Assembly (NCBI GenBank): GCA_963787445.1 | Contig: CAWBCT010000005.1 | Location: forward strand, 480,001 to 544,000 | DNA: 64,000 nucleotides | Direction: 5' to 3' | From: an uncultured archaeon | GTDB lineage: Archaea > Micrarchaeota > Micrarchaeia > Micrarchaeales > CABMGC01 | In this document: in pieces, positions 7,223-13,532 of the stretch | Position numbering within the stretch: the first letter of the stretch is position 1 | Layout of the letters: each line of letters starts with the position of its first letter | Notes under the pieces: model-generated | The model's database searches: none | Seen by the model: the letters and a program-made list of their open reading frames with translations, nothing else | Told to the model about the DNA's origin: nothing | Program-made: the position numbers and the translations under genes

Positions 7223-7438
7223 TCACCTCTTCGACTTCTTGCCTTTTGCTGTTCTGTTCGCGAGCTTGGCCTCCCTTGAGATTCTGTAGGATGTGTACAC
7301 TCCGGCTATCAGCGCCAGTACCGCCACGAGATAGAACAAAGGACTGCCACCCGTAAATATGAATGAGATGAATGCAACAATGGTAAGTGCTATCACTGCA
7401 GCGGACGCCATTACCGATATGCGCTCATGTTCCTCCAT
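7223..7438 (-). CDS. small two-TM membrane protein
   Basis: Two hydrophobic segments and a basic tail; 4 nt from the topA start; TATA-like element upstream. Confidence 0.65.
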   Translation of the reverse strand: MEEHERISVMASAAVIALTIVAFISFIFTGGSPLFYLVAVLALIAGVYTSYRISREAKLANRTAKGKKSKR

Positions 7439-7586
7439 TCCTATCCTGCTCTGGTATTCTAGATATTCTCAAAAACTATAAATGTATTGGGGTGGATCCG
7501 GCTGCTTGCACGGGCACCATGCAAACCTGACCGCCACATCAGCCTTTTATTAATTCCCTTCACATATCTCGCAGTAGGTTGATGCA

Positions 7587-7946
7587 TTGCTTAATGAGCT
7601 TGAGATACTCGTGGCGAGTTTCATCTCCGCCGGTTTGGTTGGCGTCTCGCAGTACCTGATGAAGAAACACATAGGCAAGCTAAAGCCAAGCCTGAAGGGC
7701 ATGGTTAGCCTGCTTCACAACAAGGGCGTACTGATCGGCCTGGCCACCCTCTTCTGCGGCGCGCTCTTCTATCTGCTGGCGCTGAGCTCCGGCGACCTCG
7801 ATTTCGTCTATCCGATATCGGAAAGCGCCTTCATCTTCGTGCTCATAATCTCTGCGGTGATGTTCAAGGAGCGCATCAGCAAGAAGCGCATTCTCGGCGT
7901 ACTGCTAATACTTCTTGGAATTACCATCATAGCGCTTACCTTCTAG
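7587..7946 (+). CDS. EamA/SMR-like 4-TM transporter subunit A, copy 1
   Basis: SQYLMKK, LDFVYPI, FKERISKKRILG motifs. Confidence 0.8.
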   Translation: MLNELEILVASFISAGLVGVSQYLMKKHIGKLKPSLKGMVSLLHNKGVLIGLATLFCGALFYLLALSSGDLDFVYPISESAFIFVLIISAVMFKERISKKRILGVLLILLGITIIALTF

Positions 7947-7953
7947 TGAGAAC

Positions 7954-8292
7954 ATGGACTACGAAACAAAAGCATTTCTCGTCTTCGCCCTTATCGTGAG
8001 TTCACTCTTTGCCTCTGTCGGGCAACTCTTCTTCAAACTCGGATTTGAAAACACCATAATAACCTTCTTAATCTACATAGCAATCGGCATAATCTTCTAC
8101 GGTGTCTCTACGTTGATCTACCTATTCGTGCTTGGCCGCGCCCACCTGAGCTGGGTGTACAGCTTCGGCGGACTGAGCTACATCTTCACCAGCTTCTTCG
8201 CCATCTTCTTCCTGAGCGAGCCGATGAGTCTGGGCCGCTGGGTCGGGGTAATCCTCATAATCATAGGTTCTGTGCTGATAAGCCTGAGCTGA
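7954..8292 (+). CDS. EamA/SMR-like (ArnE/ArnF-like) 4-TM transporter subunit B, copy 1
   Basis: GQLFFKLG, LSWVYS, LSEPMSLGRWVG. Confidence 0.8.
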   Translation: MDYETKAFLVFALIVSSLFASVGQLFFKLGFENTIITFLIYIAIGIIFYGVSTLIYLFVLGRAHLSWVYSFGGLSYIFTSFFAIFFLSEPMSLGRWVGVILIIIGSVLISLS

Positions 8293-8341
8293 CCCGCCAG
8301 GCTTTTATTGGTTCTCTGCATATACACCTTGGGCTGTTCTT

Positions 8342-8701
8342 TTGTTTGGCGAAGTTGAGATCATAGCACTTACCTTGGTTGCCGCAGCTCTTGCCGCAAC
8401 TTCACAGTATTTCATGAAGAAGTACGTCCACAAGTTTCAGTTTGACATAAAAGGCGCCCTAACACTGCTAAAGAACAGGGGCATACTGGTCAGCATCGGC
8501 CTCTACTTTTTCAGTGCGGTGTTCTATCTGCTTGCACTCAATTCCGGTGAGCTGGACTTTGTGTACCCGATCTTCGCAAGTACCTTCATCTTCGTGCTCA
8601 TAATCTCCGCGGTGATGTTCAGGGAGCACATCGGCAAGAAGCGCCTTCTCGGCGTCCTGCTTGTGGTATTCGGAATAGTGATAATAGCGATGACTTATTA
8701 G
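8342..8701 (+). CDS. EamA/SMR-like 4-TM transporter subunit A, copy 2
   Basis: Paralog of 7587..7946 with the same length (119 aa). Confidence 0.8.
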   Translation: MFGEVEIIALTLVAAALAATSQYFMKKYVHKFQFDIKGALTLLKNRGILVSIGLYFFSAVFYLLALNSGELDFVYPIFASTFIFVLIISAVMFREHIGKKRLLGVLLVVFGIVIIAMTY

Positions 8702-8708
8702 TGATTGG

Positions 8709-9047
8709 ATGGATAGGGAAACCAAAACATTTTTCGTGTGCATGCTGATGGTAGGTCTGCTCTTCGGGGCAACAGGCCAGCTCCTATTGAAGCTCGGCCT
8801 TCTGAATACAACTCCTCTTCTAGAGCTGTTCATACTTCTCGGCGTTGCGCTATACGGGCTATCAACAGTTATCTACCTCTATATTCTCAGCCGCACTCAC
8901 CTGAGCTGGGTCTACAGCCTAGGCGGCCTTAGCTACGTCTTCGCAACCATACTCGCCGTGTTCGTTCTGGATGAACCGACAAGCCTGGCACGCTGGCTAG
9001 GGGTCGCAGTGATAGCAATAGGCTGCATCCTAATAGGGCTTAGCTGA
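8709..9047 (+). CDS. EamA/SMR-like 4-TM transporter subunit B, copy 2
   Basis: Paralog of 7954..8292 with the same length (112 aa). Confidence 0.8.
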   Translation: MDRETKTFFVCMLMVGLLFGATGQLLLKLGLLNTTPLLELFILLGVALYGLSTVIYLYILSRTHLSWVYSLGGLSYVFATILAVFVLDEPTSLARWLGVAVIAIGCILIGLS

Positions 9048-9068: not shown

Positions 9069-9968
9069 TTACTCCTCCCTGCGCTTGACCTTCCTGCCCT
9101 TCGGCGAATCAATCGTGTTCATGTAGTCTATCACAGACCCGTATATTGCTGACTTGAGGTCCGCTCTCCCCTTGAACTCGGATTCCAGATGCACAGTTAT
9201 GACATAAATCTCGTTATGGAGGTACTCAATGTCAATCTTGAACCAGCGTATCTTCTTCGCCTTGAGCTCCCTAGAGATTATGACCTTTAGCTTATCATAA
9301 GGAACCTTTGTGTTGATATCAAACTGCATTTTTATTATGTTCTCCTTGGCTCTCCTGTAGTTTATCACCAACGCCTGAACAACGACATTGTTCGGAACAT
9401 AAACAGGCATCGCCTCGTCGTTTTCGAGCTCGGTGTAGAGAAGGCCTATGGTCTTTATCACTCCGGTGAAGCCCGGAATAAACTTGTCATGCGGATAGCT
9501 CTGCGGCTGCAGGGTATACTGCCAGGTATGTATCGTAACCCTGTCACCCGGCTCAAAGACCCCGCTTGTGAGCAGATACACCCCGGCTATAAAGTTGGAG
9601 AGCGTAGACTGCGCCGCAAGACCAAACACTATGCCCAAGAATCCCGCGCTCACAAGCAGGCCCGTAATGTCCACGTTGAGCTTGTAGAAGATGAAAACGA
9701 TCAGGATTATGTACGCGAGCACCCTGAACAGAGTCCTAATGGTCTTCGATTCAACCTTGTTCGCACCCATCCCAACAAAGCGCTGCACGGCTATGCCTAC
9801 TATCTCAATAATTATTATTCCCGCGAAAATTTGAAGCACTATCGATTCCGCAGCATTTCCTGACGCCACTCCAAGATAGATGAGGCCAGCGTAGAATGCC
9901 GCTAGGAGCAGAACCACTACGATGCCAATCTCAACATTCCTCAGAGTTTTTGCAGTTTCCTTTCCCAT
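9069..9968 (-). CDS. mscS: small-conductance mechanosensitive channel, MscS family
   Basis: GLLVSAGFLGIVFGLAAQSTLSNFIAG pore helix, FEPGDRV, YVPN. Confidence 0.9.
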   Translation of the reverse strand: MGKETAKTLRNVEIGIVVVLLLAAFYAGLIYLGVASGNAAESIVLQIFAGIIIIEIVGIAVQRFVGMGANKVESKTIRTLFRVLAYIILIVFIFYKLNVDITGLLVSAGFLGIVFGLAAQSTLSNFIAGVYLLTSGVFEPGDRVTIHTWQYTLQPQSYPHDKFIPGFTGVIKTIGLLYTELENDEAMPVYVPNNVVVQALVINYRRAKENIIKMQFDINTKVPYDKLKVIISRELKAKKIRWFKIDIEYLHNEIYVITVHLESEFKGRADLKSAIYGSVIDYMNTIDSPKGRKVKRREE

Positions 9969-10163: not shown

Positions 10164-12647
10164 TCAGGAAAAATCTGAGATGCTCTTCTGCGCCTTGGGC
10201 TCCTTCAGCTTCTTTTTCCCGCCACCAATTTCTATCACTCCGTACTCCCCATCAAAGCCGGGCTTCACCGGAAGCCTCCCCTCCCGGCTCAAAAGGATAA
10301 GGTTTACTAGCCCCGCGTCAATCTCTGCGTCAAGCAGTTGTTGCTTGGAAACGTTGAGTAGGATGTTCAGCTCATTACCAAACTTCTTGACCAACGGTTC
10401 GTAAGCCGCGGCCACCTTCTTGCTCGCCATTGAAGTTCCCATGTTAAACGCGAGCATCTCATGGAGCGGAATCAGTTTGTAATACGGTTTCGCGTTCTTG
10501 GGCTTGTACCCTTCGGGCTGCTTCGCCAGCTCCTCAATGCGGTACTCAACGCCTATGGTAAGTGGCTTTTTGCAGATTGGACAGATTCCATTGAGCTTGC
10601 GAGTTTCTGCTGGAGAGCAAGAGAAGCCGCACACCCTGTGCCCGTCAAAATGATACTTGCCGTACTCTGGCGGCGTCTCGATGGTTGCTTTAAGGCCGAC
10701 TCCTGTTCTAATTGCGTTCATTATGGCTGTGTATGAAAGCTCCTGAACATCAAAGATTGTTGCCTCGCGCCCCAGCCTCCACGGCCAGAAGCTATGAGCG
10801 TCCGAGAAACTAACAACATTTACTCCCTGGTCCATCCTCCAGATCATGCCCGGATCTGCCGACATGCCCGACTCAACCGCATGAATGTGTTTGGTCTGCT
10901 CCTCGAAGCATTCCTTGATGCTGTCAAATCCGCTCCCGCTGCCAAACAGTCCGAACCACGGGGTCATGCAGTTATGGACAGCAGCAGAAGGTGTGACAAA
11001 GGAATGACTTCCCTCAATCTGTAAATCGTATACTTTGCCTTCGTAGTCAGAATATTCTATTGTTTTAATAGGTAAATAAACGTAGTTGTCATCAATCCAT
11101 CCGTGTCTCCGAGAAAGTTTTGTATTAAATCGTTTGAACTCCGGTTGTGTCATTAGATTAAACTCATCTTTAAAGAAGGCCAGGGTACGAAACGTGAAGC
11201 AATCGTGATTTACTATTATTTTTCTACCACCAATACTTCTCTTGTACTTTTTGCTCGTCTCTTTTTTAACAATGTAAATAGAAGGGATTACGCCAATTCT
11301 TAAGCAAATTGCTTTCATCTGTTGGGCTAAAGTCTCAGAAACAGTGACTCCCGCATCTCCTCTCCACCAACCTCTAAATAGTTCAACTTGTTTAACTTTA
11401 GGTAAATAGAGCATCCACTGTGGAATTAGCTTTGTGTTGGCCCTGAAAATATCACCTCTTTCATAAAATAGAATACTAAATAACTCGGCAACGACCTTGG
11501 AGTAGAAATAGAGTTCATAACCATGGTTTTTCCTAATTTTAGAGATCTCTATTCCAAAGACGCTTTTCATTAATTGCACAACCTCACTTATATAATCTGA
11601 TTCATGTTCGGCGAAGGCGAATTGTATACAATTATTTTTCCTAACGATGTATCCCTCTGCAAGGTAGTAACCAACTAGTCTACAAAATTCTGGGGTAATC
11701 TGAATTATGTTACTAATTGGTCTATCCTGTCTACCAGAAATAGGAAGTACCTTATTATCTTTCAATCTGTATTCCCCCATTTCGATAACTTCAGATAACC
11801 TAATCACTTCTAGGTCTTTTTCTTGTTTGATTTTAGGGTATACTAGAACATCATTAACTTCTAGATTCTCAGCAAGCGTCCAACCTGGTTTATAATTCTC
11901 ATAGTGTTTTTTCTTGCATTTGTGTTTACCCTTAGCTATACTGTTTGGTTTACATAAGCCTCCCACATATTGACAATTTTTAGTTGTCTTAATACTAAAG
12001 AGAGGGTGTTCTGGAGTGGTTTGTATACCCTCTGCAAAATAATAAGGTTGTAATCTAAGAATTTTGCCTTTATATTGTCTTGATAGAACATTTGAAACCG
12101 GCTTAAATTCTCCAGTGTGAGTAAGTACCTTATCTCCGTTAGAGATCACACTTATATTTTTGACACCCGGATTGCATATAATCTTCTCGCTTGGTAATAA
12201 ACAATGTGCTGGTATAATCTCTATCAGATCATCGATCTTCTTCAGATCGGCAACTAGCTGCTTGCACGTGATGCCGAATATCGGCCTTCCATCGTAATCA
12301 AGCCGGCCCTTGCTTCCTAGGTAAGATGTTATTGCGTCAGCAATTTTCGTATTGGGCGCAAAAAGCAGAAGGTGCACCGCACGCCGTTTCCCTCCCTGCG
12401 AAAACATGAGGCTCACCTCGGTCTGCCAGATGAACGGGAACTTTGTGTCGCTCCACAGTACCCCATTTTTGTCCTCCTTCAGGTAGTTATCAATCTCTTT
12501 CCTGTGAAGGGGGTGCTGAAAATCGCCGGTGCCGAGCAAGTCTAGGCCTTTTATACGCGCATATTCCTCAAGTTTCTGTAGACTCAATGCTGTTGATGTC
12601 GCTCTTGCGTATTTGCTGTGAATCTGAAGATCCGCGATGATGTCCAT
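10164..12647 (-). CDS. endoQ: endonuclease Q (PHP family) precursor containing an intein
   Basis: DLQIHSKY, GTGD, PAH/TPWFG, SDAHS, GKYH..GHRVC, CPIC zinc ribbon, PGFDGEYG, PIP-like QKSISDF; spliced extein would be 416 aa. Confidence 0.9.
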   Translation of the reverse strand: MDIIADLQIHSKYARATSTALSLQKLEEYARIKGLDLLGTGDFQHPLHRKEIDNYLKEDKNGVLWSDTKFPFIWQTEVSLMFSQGGKRRAVHLLLFAPNTKIADAITSYLGSKGRLDYDGRPIFGITCKQLVADLKKIDDLIEIIPAHCLLPSEKIICNPGVKNISVISNGDKVLTHTGEFKPVSNVLSRQYKGKILRLQPYYFAEGIQTTPEHPLFSIKTTKNCQYVGGLCKPNSIAKGKHKCKKKHYENYKPGWTLAENLEVNDVLVYPKIKQEKDLEVIRLSEVIEMGEYRLKDNKVLPISGRQDRPISNIIQITPEFCRLVGYYLAEGYIVRKNNCIQFAFAEHESDYISEVVQLMKSVFGIEISKIRKNHGYELYFYSKVVAELFSILFYERGDIFRANTKLIPQWMLYLPKVKQVELFRGWWRGDAGVTVSETLAQQMKAICLRIGVIPSIYIVKKETSKKYKRSIGGRKIIVNHDCFTFRTLAFFKDEFNLMTQPEFKRFNTKLSRRHGWIDDNYVYLPIKTIEYSDYEGKVYDLQIEGSHSFVTPSAAVHNCMTPWFGLFGSGSGFDSIKECFEEQTKHIHAVESGMSADPGMIWRMDQGVNVVSFSDAHSFWPWRLGREATIFDVQELSYTAIMNAIRTGVGLKATIETPPEYGKYHFDGHRVCGFSCSPAETRKLNGICPICKKPLTIGVEYRIEELAKQPEGYKPKNAKPYYKLIPLHEMLAFNMGTSMASKKVAAAYEPLVKKFGNELNILLNVSKQQLLDAEIDAGLVNLILLSREGRLPVKPGFDGEYGVIEIGGGKKKLKEPKAQKSISDFS
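10971..12203 (-). mobile_element. intein (411 aa) with LAGLIDADG homing endonuclease, inserted in endoQ
   Basis: Block A CLLPSEKI, block B TTPEHP, blocks C/E LVGYYLAEG and LFRGWWRGDAG, block F VYDLQIEGSHSF, block G VHN followed by Cys; visibly AT-richer than its flanks. Confidence 0.95.
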
Positions 12648-12655
12648 TTATTATC

Positions 12656-13141
12656 TCACTTCTTGTAGCCTATGTCTCTCAAAAACTTCCTCCTTGCCGC
12701 TCTGTCTGCCTGTTTCTCCACGCCTTTTGAGTCTGAACCGTCAACCACACCTACAATCCCACGGCCCTGCCTAGTTTCAACAACTAAAACTTCCACAGGG
12801 TTTGCAGTTGCGCAGAAGATCCGAGCGACTTCAGGCACCTGTTTTATCGCATTGGCAATGTTGATTGGAAAGGCACCTTTGAACATTATTAGGAATGAGT
12901 GACCCGCGGCTATCTTCTGCATGTTTTTTCCTGCTGAACTCTCGAGAGGACCATCGTTGCCCTCGGTTCTTATCAGACCAGGTCCACTGGCCTCGGCAAA
13001 CGCGATACCAAACTTTATGCCAGGTACAGCTCCGACCATACACTCGTATAAGTCCTCAGCTGTCTTTATGAAGCCTGCGTGCCCTAAAATGATCTGCTCA
13101 TCATCGTTTTTCACAATTTTTACTATCTCAATCTCCGCCAT
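12656..13141 (-). CDS. adenosine-specific kinase family (DUF355-like) protein
   Basis: [37 protein letters not shown]; start reset to ATG 13141 after a GGTGAG SD. Confidence 0.85.
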
Positions 13142-13235
13142 ACTCTCACCATGCGGCTCTATTCTATGAAGAGAAAGCCACATTACGTACTTAGAGGAAA
13201 AGGTCTATAATATATATGAAAATGGGAAGAACGCC

Positions 13236-13532
13236 TCACTTCGTAAGCGTTATCTCTATGGAGCTTACCTTGGAGATTGTCCCGTCCTCGTTGGAGAGCT
13301 CCTCCGAGTTTATCTCTATCTGGCCGACATGCGTGTCCGTCACGAACCTGTGCCTTGAGATCTCCGCAACATCGACTGCGCGTGAGATTGCATTGCCCCT
13401 TGCACGCACTTTTACGCTCTTTGCGCCGCCGTTGAATTGCGTAACCACCGCAAGCACATAGTTCATCGCTGGCTTCTTGCCTATAAGCACTACATTTTCT
13501 CCAATCGTCGTTGTTTCCATTTCTTCAGCCAT
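13236..13532 (-). CDS. albA: chromatin/RNA-binding protein Alba
   Basis: [32 protein letters not shown]. Confidence 0.97.

Follow-up and report, generated by a model that had tools for sequence, protein, structure and literature searches.

How does a gene of the EndoQ (endonuclease Q) family come to be interrupted by an intein directly behind one of the metal ligands of its active site, and how did the interrupted gene reach the genome in which it is now found? The question is raised by an open reading frame on a 64,000-nucleotide stretch of contig CAWBCT010000005.1 (GenBank assembly GCA_963787445.1, positions 480,001 to 544,000), hereafter the window, from an uncultured soil archaeon of the Micrarchaeota with a small genome. 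The explanation that we regard, taken as a whole, as very likely correct is that the insert is a canonical class-1 bifunctional intein with a two-motif LAGLIDADG homing endonuclease, lying in frame in an EndoQ-family gene, and that this gene came with its intein from outside the family of its present host. The intein belongs to an old, widespread allele at one EndoQ site in DPANN archaea and in bacteria of the Candidate Phyla Radiation (CPR), an allele that is poorly documented in print.

The interrupted gene and its insert

The precursor, its parts and the residues that mark them are as follows, with positions counted from the first letter of the window.

10164..12647, minus strand: precursor open reading frame, 827 aa, an EndoQ homologue broken by one intein
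12204..12647, minus strand: N-extein, 148 aa, first part of the PHP domain
12615-12632, minus strand: DLQIHS motif of the N-extein
12417-12419, minus strand: Glu77 of the N-extein
12372-12374, minus strand: His92 of the N-extein
12204-12212, minus strand: final PAH of the N-extein
10971..12203, minus strand: intein, 411 aa, a Hint splicing domain into which a LAGLIDADG homing-endonuclease domain is inserted
12201-12203, minus strand: Cys1 (block A), nucleophile of splicing step 1; Cys in 168/168 aligned inteins
12006-12017, minus strand: block B TPEH (TxxH), intein residues 63-66; Thr63 and His66 in 168/168
11649-11687, minus strand: LAGLIDADG motif 1, FCRLVGYYLAEGY, with acidic Glu183; Glu in 165/168; aligns with LLGYYVSEGY of PI-PkoII
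11346-11378, minus strand: LAGLIDADG motif 2, FRGWWRGDAGV, with acidic Asp283; Asp in 167/168; aligns with GYFIGDGD of PI-PkoII
10998-11033, minus strand: block F, VYDLQIEGSHSF, atypical against the allele consensus VYNLEVEEDNSY
10968-10985, minus strand: block G AAVHN (His410, Asn411) and Cys+1; His410 and Asn411 in 168/168
10164..10970, minus strand: C-extein, 268 aa, the remaining PHP domain (SDAH motif) together with the Zn-binding and C-terminal helical domains

The intein occupies precursor residues 149-559, and the 827-codon frame is open throughout, without stops. At the protein level the junctions read ...EIIPAH/CLLPSEK... on the N side and ...AAVHN/CMTPWFG... on the C side, the DNA at these points being ...CCA GCA CAT/ and /TGC ATG ACC..., and intein-less homologues run unbroken through the same site with the pattern PAH-[CAVILS]-[MW]TP. 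In each of four soil-metagenome runs from one study, contigs of at least 99% identity bridge the N-extein/intein junction, so this junction is not an assembly artefact of the focal genome alone. At the depth of those runs (about 2-7) no contig bridged the C junction, nor did any contig show an extein-extein joint that skips the intein; as contigs drop rare variants, the latter result does not show that such a joint is absent.

A preliminary description of this DNA, made from its letters, had claimed a complete 411-residue intein with Cys1, a TxxH motif, two LAGLIDADG blocks that keep their acidic residues, a terminal His-Asn pair and Cys+1. The coordinates, motifs and junctions found here all match that claim, and the LAGLIDADG endonuclease that it placed in the insert is borne out by both motifs and by Pfam LAGLIDADG_3 (27.4 bits on the precursor, cut-off 22.5). 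Pfam Intein_splicing likewise matches the precursor (44.5 bits, cut-off 35.8), and NCBIfam intein_Cterm gives 19.6 bits (cut-off 15.6). The conservation counts listed with the features refer to an alignment of 168 inteins, made up of 120 listed database proteins and the genome loci described below, with identical and cut rows dropped; Cys+1 was found in all 120 listed homologues, which are the best 120 of 465 matches.

An AlphaFold2 model of the intein, built on 33 sequences, has a predicted local distance difference test score (pLDDT) of 92.7 and a predicted template-modelling score (pTM) of 0.92. Its best Foldseek matches are TliVMA (7qsu, E 2.4e-18), PI-PkoII (2cw7), PhoVMA (7qst), PI-SceI (1vde) and PI-PfuI, with endonuclease-bearing inteins spanning E 2.4e-18 to 3.2e-9 at template-modelling (TM) scores of at most 0.66. 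The Hint fold also matches the hedgehog autoprocessing domain (1at0), and the central domain of the model matches I-DmoI, I-SceI and I-Tsp061I, that is, the LAGLIDADG fold. The solved inteins TliVMA and PhoVMA (7qsu, 7qss, 7qst), PI-PkoII, PI-SceI and PI-PfuI (1dq3) share the Hint and LAGLIDADG architecture with the focal intein, PI-PkoII being matched by sequence too, both LAGLIDADG motifs included; they differ from it in sequence (10-15% identity in the structural alignments), in host and in insertion site. Judged by its conserved motifs, the focal intein is a clean example of its allele and probably active, and both splicing and mobility are plausible for it.

The host is an EndoQ homologue, as the preliminary description had it. 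N-extein residues 3-147 align to residues 3-138 of the P. furiosus enzyme, PfuEndoQ (E 8e-11), and C-extein residues 2-249 to PfuEndoQ 141-383 (E 2.5e-29; both PDB 5zb8/7k30). With PfuEndoQ residues 138 and 141 on either side of the junction, His148, the last residue ahead of the intein, corresponds to Pfu His139. The passages of PMC5961232 on the PfuEndoQ active site name His8, His10, Glu76, His84, His139 and Asp193 as the residues that coordinate two catalytic Zn ions, and state that H139A almost abolishes activity while H8A keeps about half of it; the assignment of the PAH His as a metal ligand, also made in the preliminary description, agrees with these passages. Equivalents of Pfu His10, Glu76 (Glu77), His139 (His148) and Asp193 (in SDAH) are present in the host protein, and its His92 stands one column off Pfu His84. 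Across an alignment of 218 EndoQ-type exteins, the residue is kept in 206 rows at His10, in 216 at Glu77, in 217 at His92 and in every row at His148. The PHP, Zn-binding and helical domains of PfuEndoQ (5zb8, 7k30-7k33) are all matched by the two exteins; the host gene differs from PfuEndoQ in being broken by an intein, in having Gln for His8, in a C-extein His aligned with the first Zn-finger Cys, and in scoring below the NCBIfam cut-off. From these alignments the spliced protein is predicted to have EndoQ activity.

The insertion site in other genomes

The preliminary description had suggested a possibly new allele, which the survey of databases does not support. A protein search gave 465 matches at E values of at most 1e-5, and the best 120 of them (624-872 aa, at most 63% identical) all carry the junction PAH/C...HN/C; where these proteins are named, they are called 'hypothetical protein' or 'TIGR00375 family' and come from Pace-, Woese- and Nanoarchaeota. 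When one genome per species was scanned with the intein alignment, 79 loci came up, 63 of which have the same junction in an EndoQ gene, with 3 further loci cut by contig ends. The search for an EndoQ insertion after PAH that had been proposed at the start did find insertions, at a site that was already widespread.

For tree building 52 loci were kept and 11 dropped (7 that duplicated rows already present, 2 bearing a second intein, and 2 cut by contig ends). Among the tree loci 36 are labelled Archaea, from DPANN groups, and 17 of the 52 are labelled Bacteria (15 from their NCBI rank, 2 Nealsonbacteria from the title), mostly from CPR groups. Two of the bacterial-labelled loci, on contigs about 3 kb long, may have been binned wrongly. 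Bacterial rpoB scored above its curated cut-off in four of the five bacterial-labelled genomes tested, one of them complete and in a single contig. The comparison of intein and extein trees that had also been proposed was run: the division between archaea and bacteria takes one change in the extein tree (support 99) and two in the intein tree. The bacterial exteins group as one clade. CPR-labelled loci with the allele are L070, L072, L078, L079, L083, L086, L087 and L090, with further ones at L092, L100, L104, L109, L111, L115 and L120, and one CPR-labelled carrier is a complete genome of 0.64 Mb. Our literature search found no paper that describes inteins common to CPR and DPANN.

Copies of the allele from publicly available metagenome genomes of DPANN and CPR (e.g. 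loci L101, L064, L066 and L087, and proteins P0001-P0012) share with the focal copy the pattern PAH/C...HN/C[MW]TP and the invariant residues. Their inteins are 345-441 aa long (median 409) and 39-60% identical to the focal intein, with extein identities of at most 69%. The focal copy is set apart from them by a unique block F, by a high-GC host and by lying in a gene foreign to its host family.

Further evidence that the allele was already known comes from the NCBIfam profile TIGR00375, which the precursor covers over positions 2-374. The last 141 residues of the intein alone match profile positions 2-134 (E 3e-10), more strongly than the true N-extein does (35.9 bits alone), and the C-extein (152.5 bits alone) covers positions 135-374; the intein-bearing precursor, at 240.6 bits, outscores three intein-less relatives at 185-195 bits. 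Because the intein tail matches positions 2-134 and the C-extein begins at 135, the curated seed must hold a member with an intein at the focal junction. The TIGR00375 family was found in the M. jannaschii control genome, and the seed member is presumably M. jannaschii MJ0043, host of the intein listed in InBase and Swiss-Prot as 'Mja Hyp-1' (hyp1), an identification to which the profile lends indirect support. On that identification Mja Hyp-1 would have its host family in common with the focal gene; its host is a hyperthermophilic methanogen, the focal host a small-genome soil DPANN archaeon. The genome scan with focal-intein-family patterns gave no Methanococcales locus.

No link between EndoQ and inteins was found in the EndoQ papers searched or by a literature search with EndoQ, TIGR00375, MJ0043 and Mja Hyp-1. 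In the portions of PMC7776575 that mention EndoQ and inteins the two are not connected, and EndoQ, PHP and COG1379 are absent from the 38 euryarchaeal host columns in supplement file 2 of the 2016 survey PMC4760082, whose file 1 may bear on the matter. That the preliminary description did not recall EndoQ as an intein host is understandable, since the EndoQ papers searched never mention inteins.

EndoQ genes also have a second insertion point, about 36 residues into the C-extein, after an ETG[LMI]S motif (E[ST]G[LM]S/C...). Loci L171 and L172 are occupied at this second site only, and L076 and L108 at both sites, with open reading frames of 1162 and 1210 aa.

Origin of the gene

EndoQ-type genes are near-universal in the focal DPANN phylum. 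A match to the EndoQ C-extein was found in 366 of 401 genomes sampled from it (tallies that include two genomes flagged as unpublished, G029 and G198), most of the open frames being 405-490 aa long, that is, intein-less. The EndoQ paper of 2015, with the few genomes then at hand, reportedly found none in Nanoarchaeota. The full-length allele occurs in only 7 other genomes of the 401, with 43-47% identity and frames of 816-864 aa, all of them in other orders. It was not found in the EndoQ genes of the 5 genomes sampled from the host's own genus (g1), the 82 from its own family (f1) or the 94 from the sister family (f2). In the genus (0 of 5) and both families, intein matches are at most 39% identical, and the weak matches fetched from them lie outside EndoQ genes (L043-L048, L052, L054, L056-L058, L062, L063).

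The intein-bearing EndoQ gene is foreign to its host's own family and sits at the ancestral syntenic position. Three marker proteins and two flanking genes of the same genome are closer to the host's genus than to other lineages, and the EndoQ exteins are not:

SecY: 75-77% identity to own genus g1, 56-63% to genera g42/g49
CTP synthase: 67-73% to own genus g1, 47% to g42/g49
FttA: 80-83% to own genus g1, 67-68% to g42/g49
Mechanosensitive channel (flank): 51-54% to own genus, 33% to G063
Adenosine-kinase-like protein (flank): 61% to own genus (G101), 52% to G125
EndoQ exteins: 42% to own genus and family, 64% to the donor clade

Every 40-residue window of the extein is nearer the donor clade than the host's own family, which rules out a mosaic extein whose 5' or 3' end would be native. 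In the extein tree (218 rows) 20 rows of the own family form an exclusive clade without the focal gene, which falls instead in a clade of 23 rows (support 100) with intein-less genes of g42 and g49 and with intein-bearing metagenome proteins. The residue at +1 in the native family alleles is Ala, Val, Ile or Leu (Cys in 0 of 20), and it is Cys in six of seven intein-less members of the donor clade. The donor-clade Cys is compatible with two histories: an intein once stood there and was precisely lost, or the site is primed for invasion.

On the upstream side, the gene order pilin-like, Alba, adenosine-kinase-like, EndoQ is common to the genus relatives. The neighbours concerned are these:

12656..13183, minus strand: Adenosine_kin-family gene (Pfam), native upstream neighbour; same order in G101
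13236..13532, minus strand: Alba gene (Pfam Alba), 80-91% identical to four genus relatives, where it lies beside their EndoQ genes
9069..9968, minus strand: mechanosensitive-channel family gene (Pfam), native downstream neighbour; located elsewhere in the genomes of genus relatives

Further along, at 7587-9047 of the window, a pair of genes for small EamA-like membrane proteins (119 aa and 112 aa) is present twice, as a tandem duplication. A split or intein-bearing topoisomerase I next door was considered and ruled out, the gene being whole with a GTG start.

We infer that a foreign gene, from a donor lineage related to genera g42 and g49 of a sister family and to uncultured Woese-/Pacearchaeota, replaced a native, Cys-less EndoQ gene at the ancestral position. 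A search of viral contigs for a vector gave one weak relative only (26% identity). As to whether the intein came with the gene, the focal intein shows 55-60% identity to those inteins whose exteins match its own at 60-69%, and the family mean for intein identity in the 65-70% extein bin is 55.4 (standard deviation 9.3). Intein divergence is thus what extein divergence predicts, and we conclude that intein and exteins arrived together as one gene.

Base composition, which at first sight tells another story, is a poor guide to the time of arrival. The intein has a GC content of 35.7%, against 49.1% in the N-extein, 52.5% in the C-extein and 51.8% in the 64-kb window, and its GC content at third codon positions (GC3) is 0.314, compared with 0.623 for the exteins and 0.68 on average over the open reading frames of the window. 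The preliminary description was right to call the intein much AT-richer than its flanks. Its deduction from this of a recent acquisition does not hold: in the phylum sample GC and GC3 of the intein lie below those of the exteins in all eight intein-bearing genes, and in a wider set of 62 genes (the 63 matching loci, less 2 with mis-set boundaries, plus the focal gene) the intein falls below its exteins in GC 61 times and in GC3 56 times, and, as said, its divergence follows that of the exteins. Over the 62 genes intein GC3 equals 0.08 + 0.49 x extein GC3 (r 0.86). Since the contrast grows with the GC content of the host, AT-richness does not date the arrival. The focal genome has about 52-54% GC (GC3 0.68), while three genomes of the same genus (L143-L145) have 32-45% GC around their EndoQ loci (GC3 0.21-0.50), an unusually wide spread for one genus.

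The focal copy is odd above all in block F: it reads VYDLQIEGSHSF here, where the nearest relatives, like the allele in both domains, have VYNLEVEEDNSY. Within 10998-11033 there are 6-7 substitutions in 10 residues against all relatives, and the flanks are family-like. The residues that replace the consensus here are Asp, His and Phe, as is typical for block F of inteins at large; they also occur in the other-host inteins L047 and L057, which show VYDL..EG.HS-like blocks, and in PI-PkoII. A short conversion patch, convergence and adaptation are all possible explanations. No donor for the odd block was found within the focal genome. That genome has one other clear intein, a second full-length LAGLIDADG intein outside the window (L003; contig C10, 15599-16783), 30-34% identical to the EndoQ intein and splitting a Ski2/Hel308-like helicase (...STTTL/CLPPG...VHN/SLGVN); it was ruled out as the source, its own block F being of the family type. 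Contig C4 has two further weak intein-like matches (at about 7400-9000).

Several observations weigh against the explanation put forward at the outset, and some of them favour alternatives. The precursor and its intein-less relatives all fall under the curated TIGR00375 cut-off of 326.6 bits; as the whole DPANN branch lies below this equivalog threshold, the host protein is to be called an EndoQ homologue and not a certified equivalog. The trees were made by quick methods, FastTree for the extein tree and a short IQ-TREE search for the domain-split trees. The focal intein GC3 lies 1.5 standard deviations below the family trend, which leaves some room for a later, separate arrival of the intein. 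Such an arrival would mean that the EndoQ gene, native or already resident, was lately invaded by an intein from a low-GC donor, an intein not yet adapted to its host in composition and still actively mobile. Besides that residual it can claim the GC3 gap between intein, exteins and window genes, a gap that ranks third of 62, the intactness of both endonuclease motifs, and the failure to find the allele in EndoQ genes of the genus and the two families sampled. We nevertheless consider it quite unlikely: an AT-richer intein whose GC3 tracks its exteins is a trait of the family, the nearest inteins are as distant as the extein divergence predicts, the exteins group with the foreign clade from end to end, and all 20 native family alleles lack the +1 Cys. 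Decay of the copy is an alternative that draws on the remaining contrary points. The focal intein deviates at 10 of the 83 positions that are at least 90% conserved among the copies, more than any other of the 168 (median 2), and block F, a participant in splicing, accounts for six of these; the position of the Zn ligand Pfu His8 is moreover a Gln (DLQIHS, not DLHIHS). If these changes crippled splicing, the EndoQ gene would be on its way to a pseudogene. This is the least probable of the readings considered, given that the frame is open over all 827 codons, that all catalytic splicing residues and both endonuclease acids are kept, as are His10, Glu77, His92 and His148, that the Asp, His and Phe of block F recur in L047, L057 and PI-PkoII, and that Gln at this position is found in 25 of 218 homologues, intein-less ones included, which form the donor clade, and so is a trait of that clade.

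Two readings concern what the intein does rather than when it came. It could have been domesticated as a conditional intein, its splicing serving as a redox, metal or stress switch that releases EndoQ activity, with Cys1 and Cys+1 beside the zinc site and mobility secondary. One site occupied across two domains, with invariant splicing residues and a position exactly at a metal ligand, would suit such a role, and the relevant part of PMC4760082 argues that the clustering of inteins in functional sites may reflect function. The allele is, however, present in only 8 of 401 phylum genomes (the focal one and 7 others) when 366 carry EndoQ, close intein-less relatives exist, and conservation is as strong in the endonuclease motifs as in those for splicing, in keeping with selection for mobility; we therefore hold a switch to be highly improbable. 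The other reading is that the intein drove a xenologous replacement of the whole gene: a foreign EndoQ allele bearing it would have entered the cell, and the homing endonuclease, or recombination begun at the locus, would have caused the resident gene to be overwritten at its ancestral position. The resident EndoQ, without a Cys at +1, could not have hosted the intein on this account, which we think unlikely, though less so than the other three. If it were true, homing inteins could cross family boundaries dragging an entire host gene with them, and the allele in DPANN and CPR would be a large-scale trace of such spread.

Splicing, homing and meaning

For the preferred explanation, an intein-bearing gene acquired whole, the course of events in the cell may be pictured from the chemistry established for class-1 inteins. 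The 827-aa precursor would be translated whole and presumably be inactive until splicing, because the 411-aa insert separates its metal ligands. Cys1 would then attack the His148-Cys1 peptide bond (N-S shift), the N-extein would be passed on to Cys+1, and Asn411 would cyclise, aided by His410 and block F; an S-N shift would finally join the exteins into an EndoQ-like enzyme of about 416 aa reading ...PAH-CMTPWF.... The released intein may cut intein-less alleles as a site-specific endonuclease, an activity predicted from its two motifs. Among candidate homing targets, the intein-less sites of g42 and g49 are identical to the focal site at 32-35 of 48 nucleotides, and those of the genus relatives at 26-28 of 48.

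Taken alone, the focal locus is one more copy of a common intein. Its wider meaning is that EndoQ regularly hosts inteins, at two sites or more, which matters for the expression of EndoQ genes of the DPANN, CPR and Methanococcales types, and that the occurrence of the allele in ultra-small archaea and ultra-small bacteria makes it a clean marker of inter-domain gene flow. What the locus adds is the pairing of a foreign intein-bearing gene, at the native position, with native relatives that lack Cys+1. The two form a natural test pair, which bears on how much target divergence a homing endonuclease tolerates and on whether inteins travel with their whole host gene.

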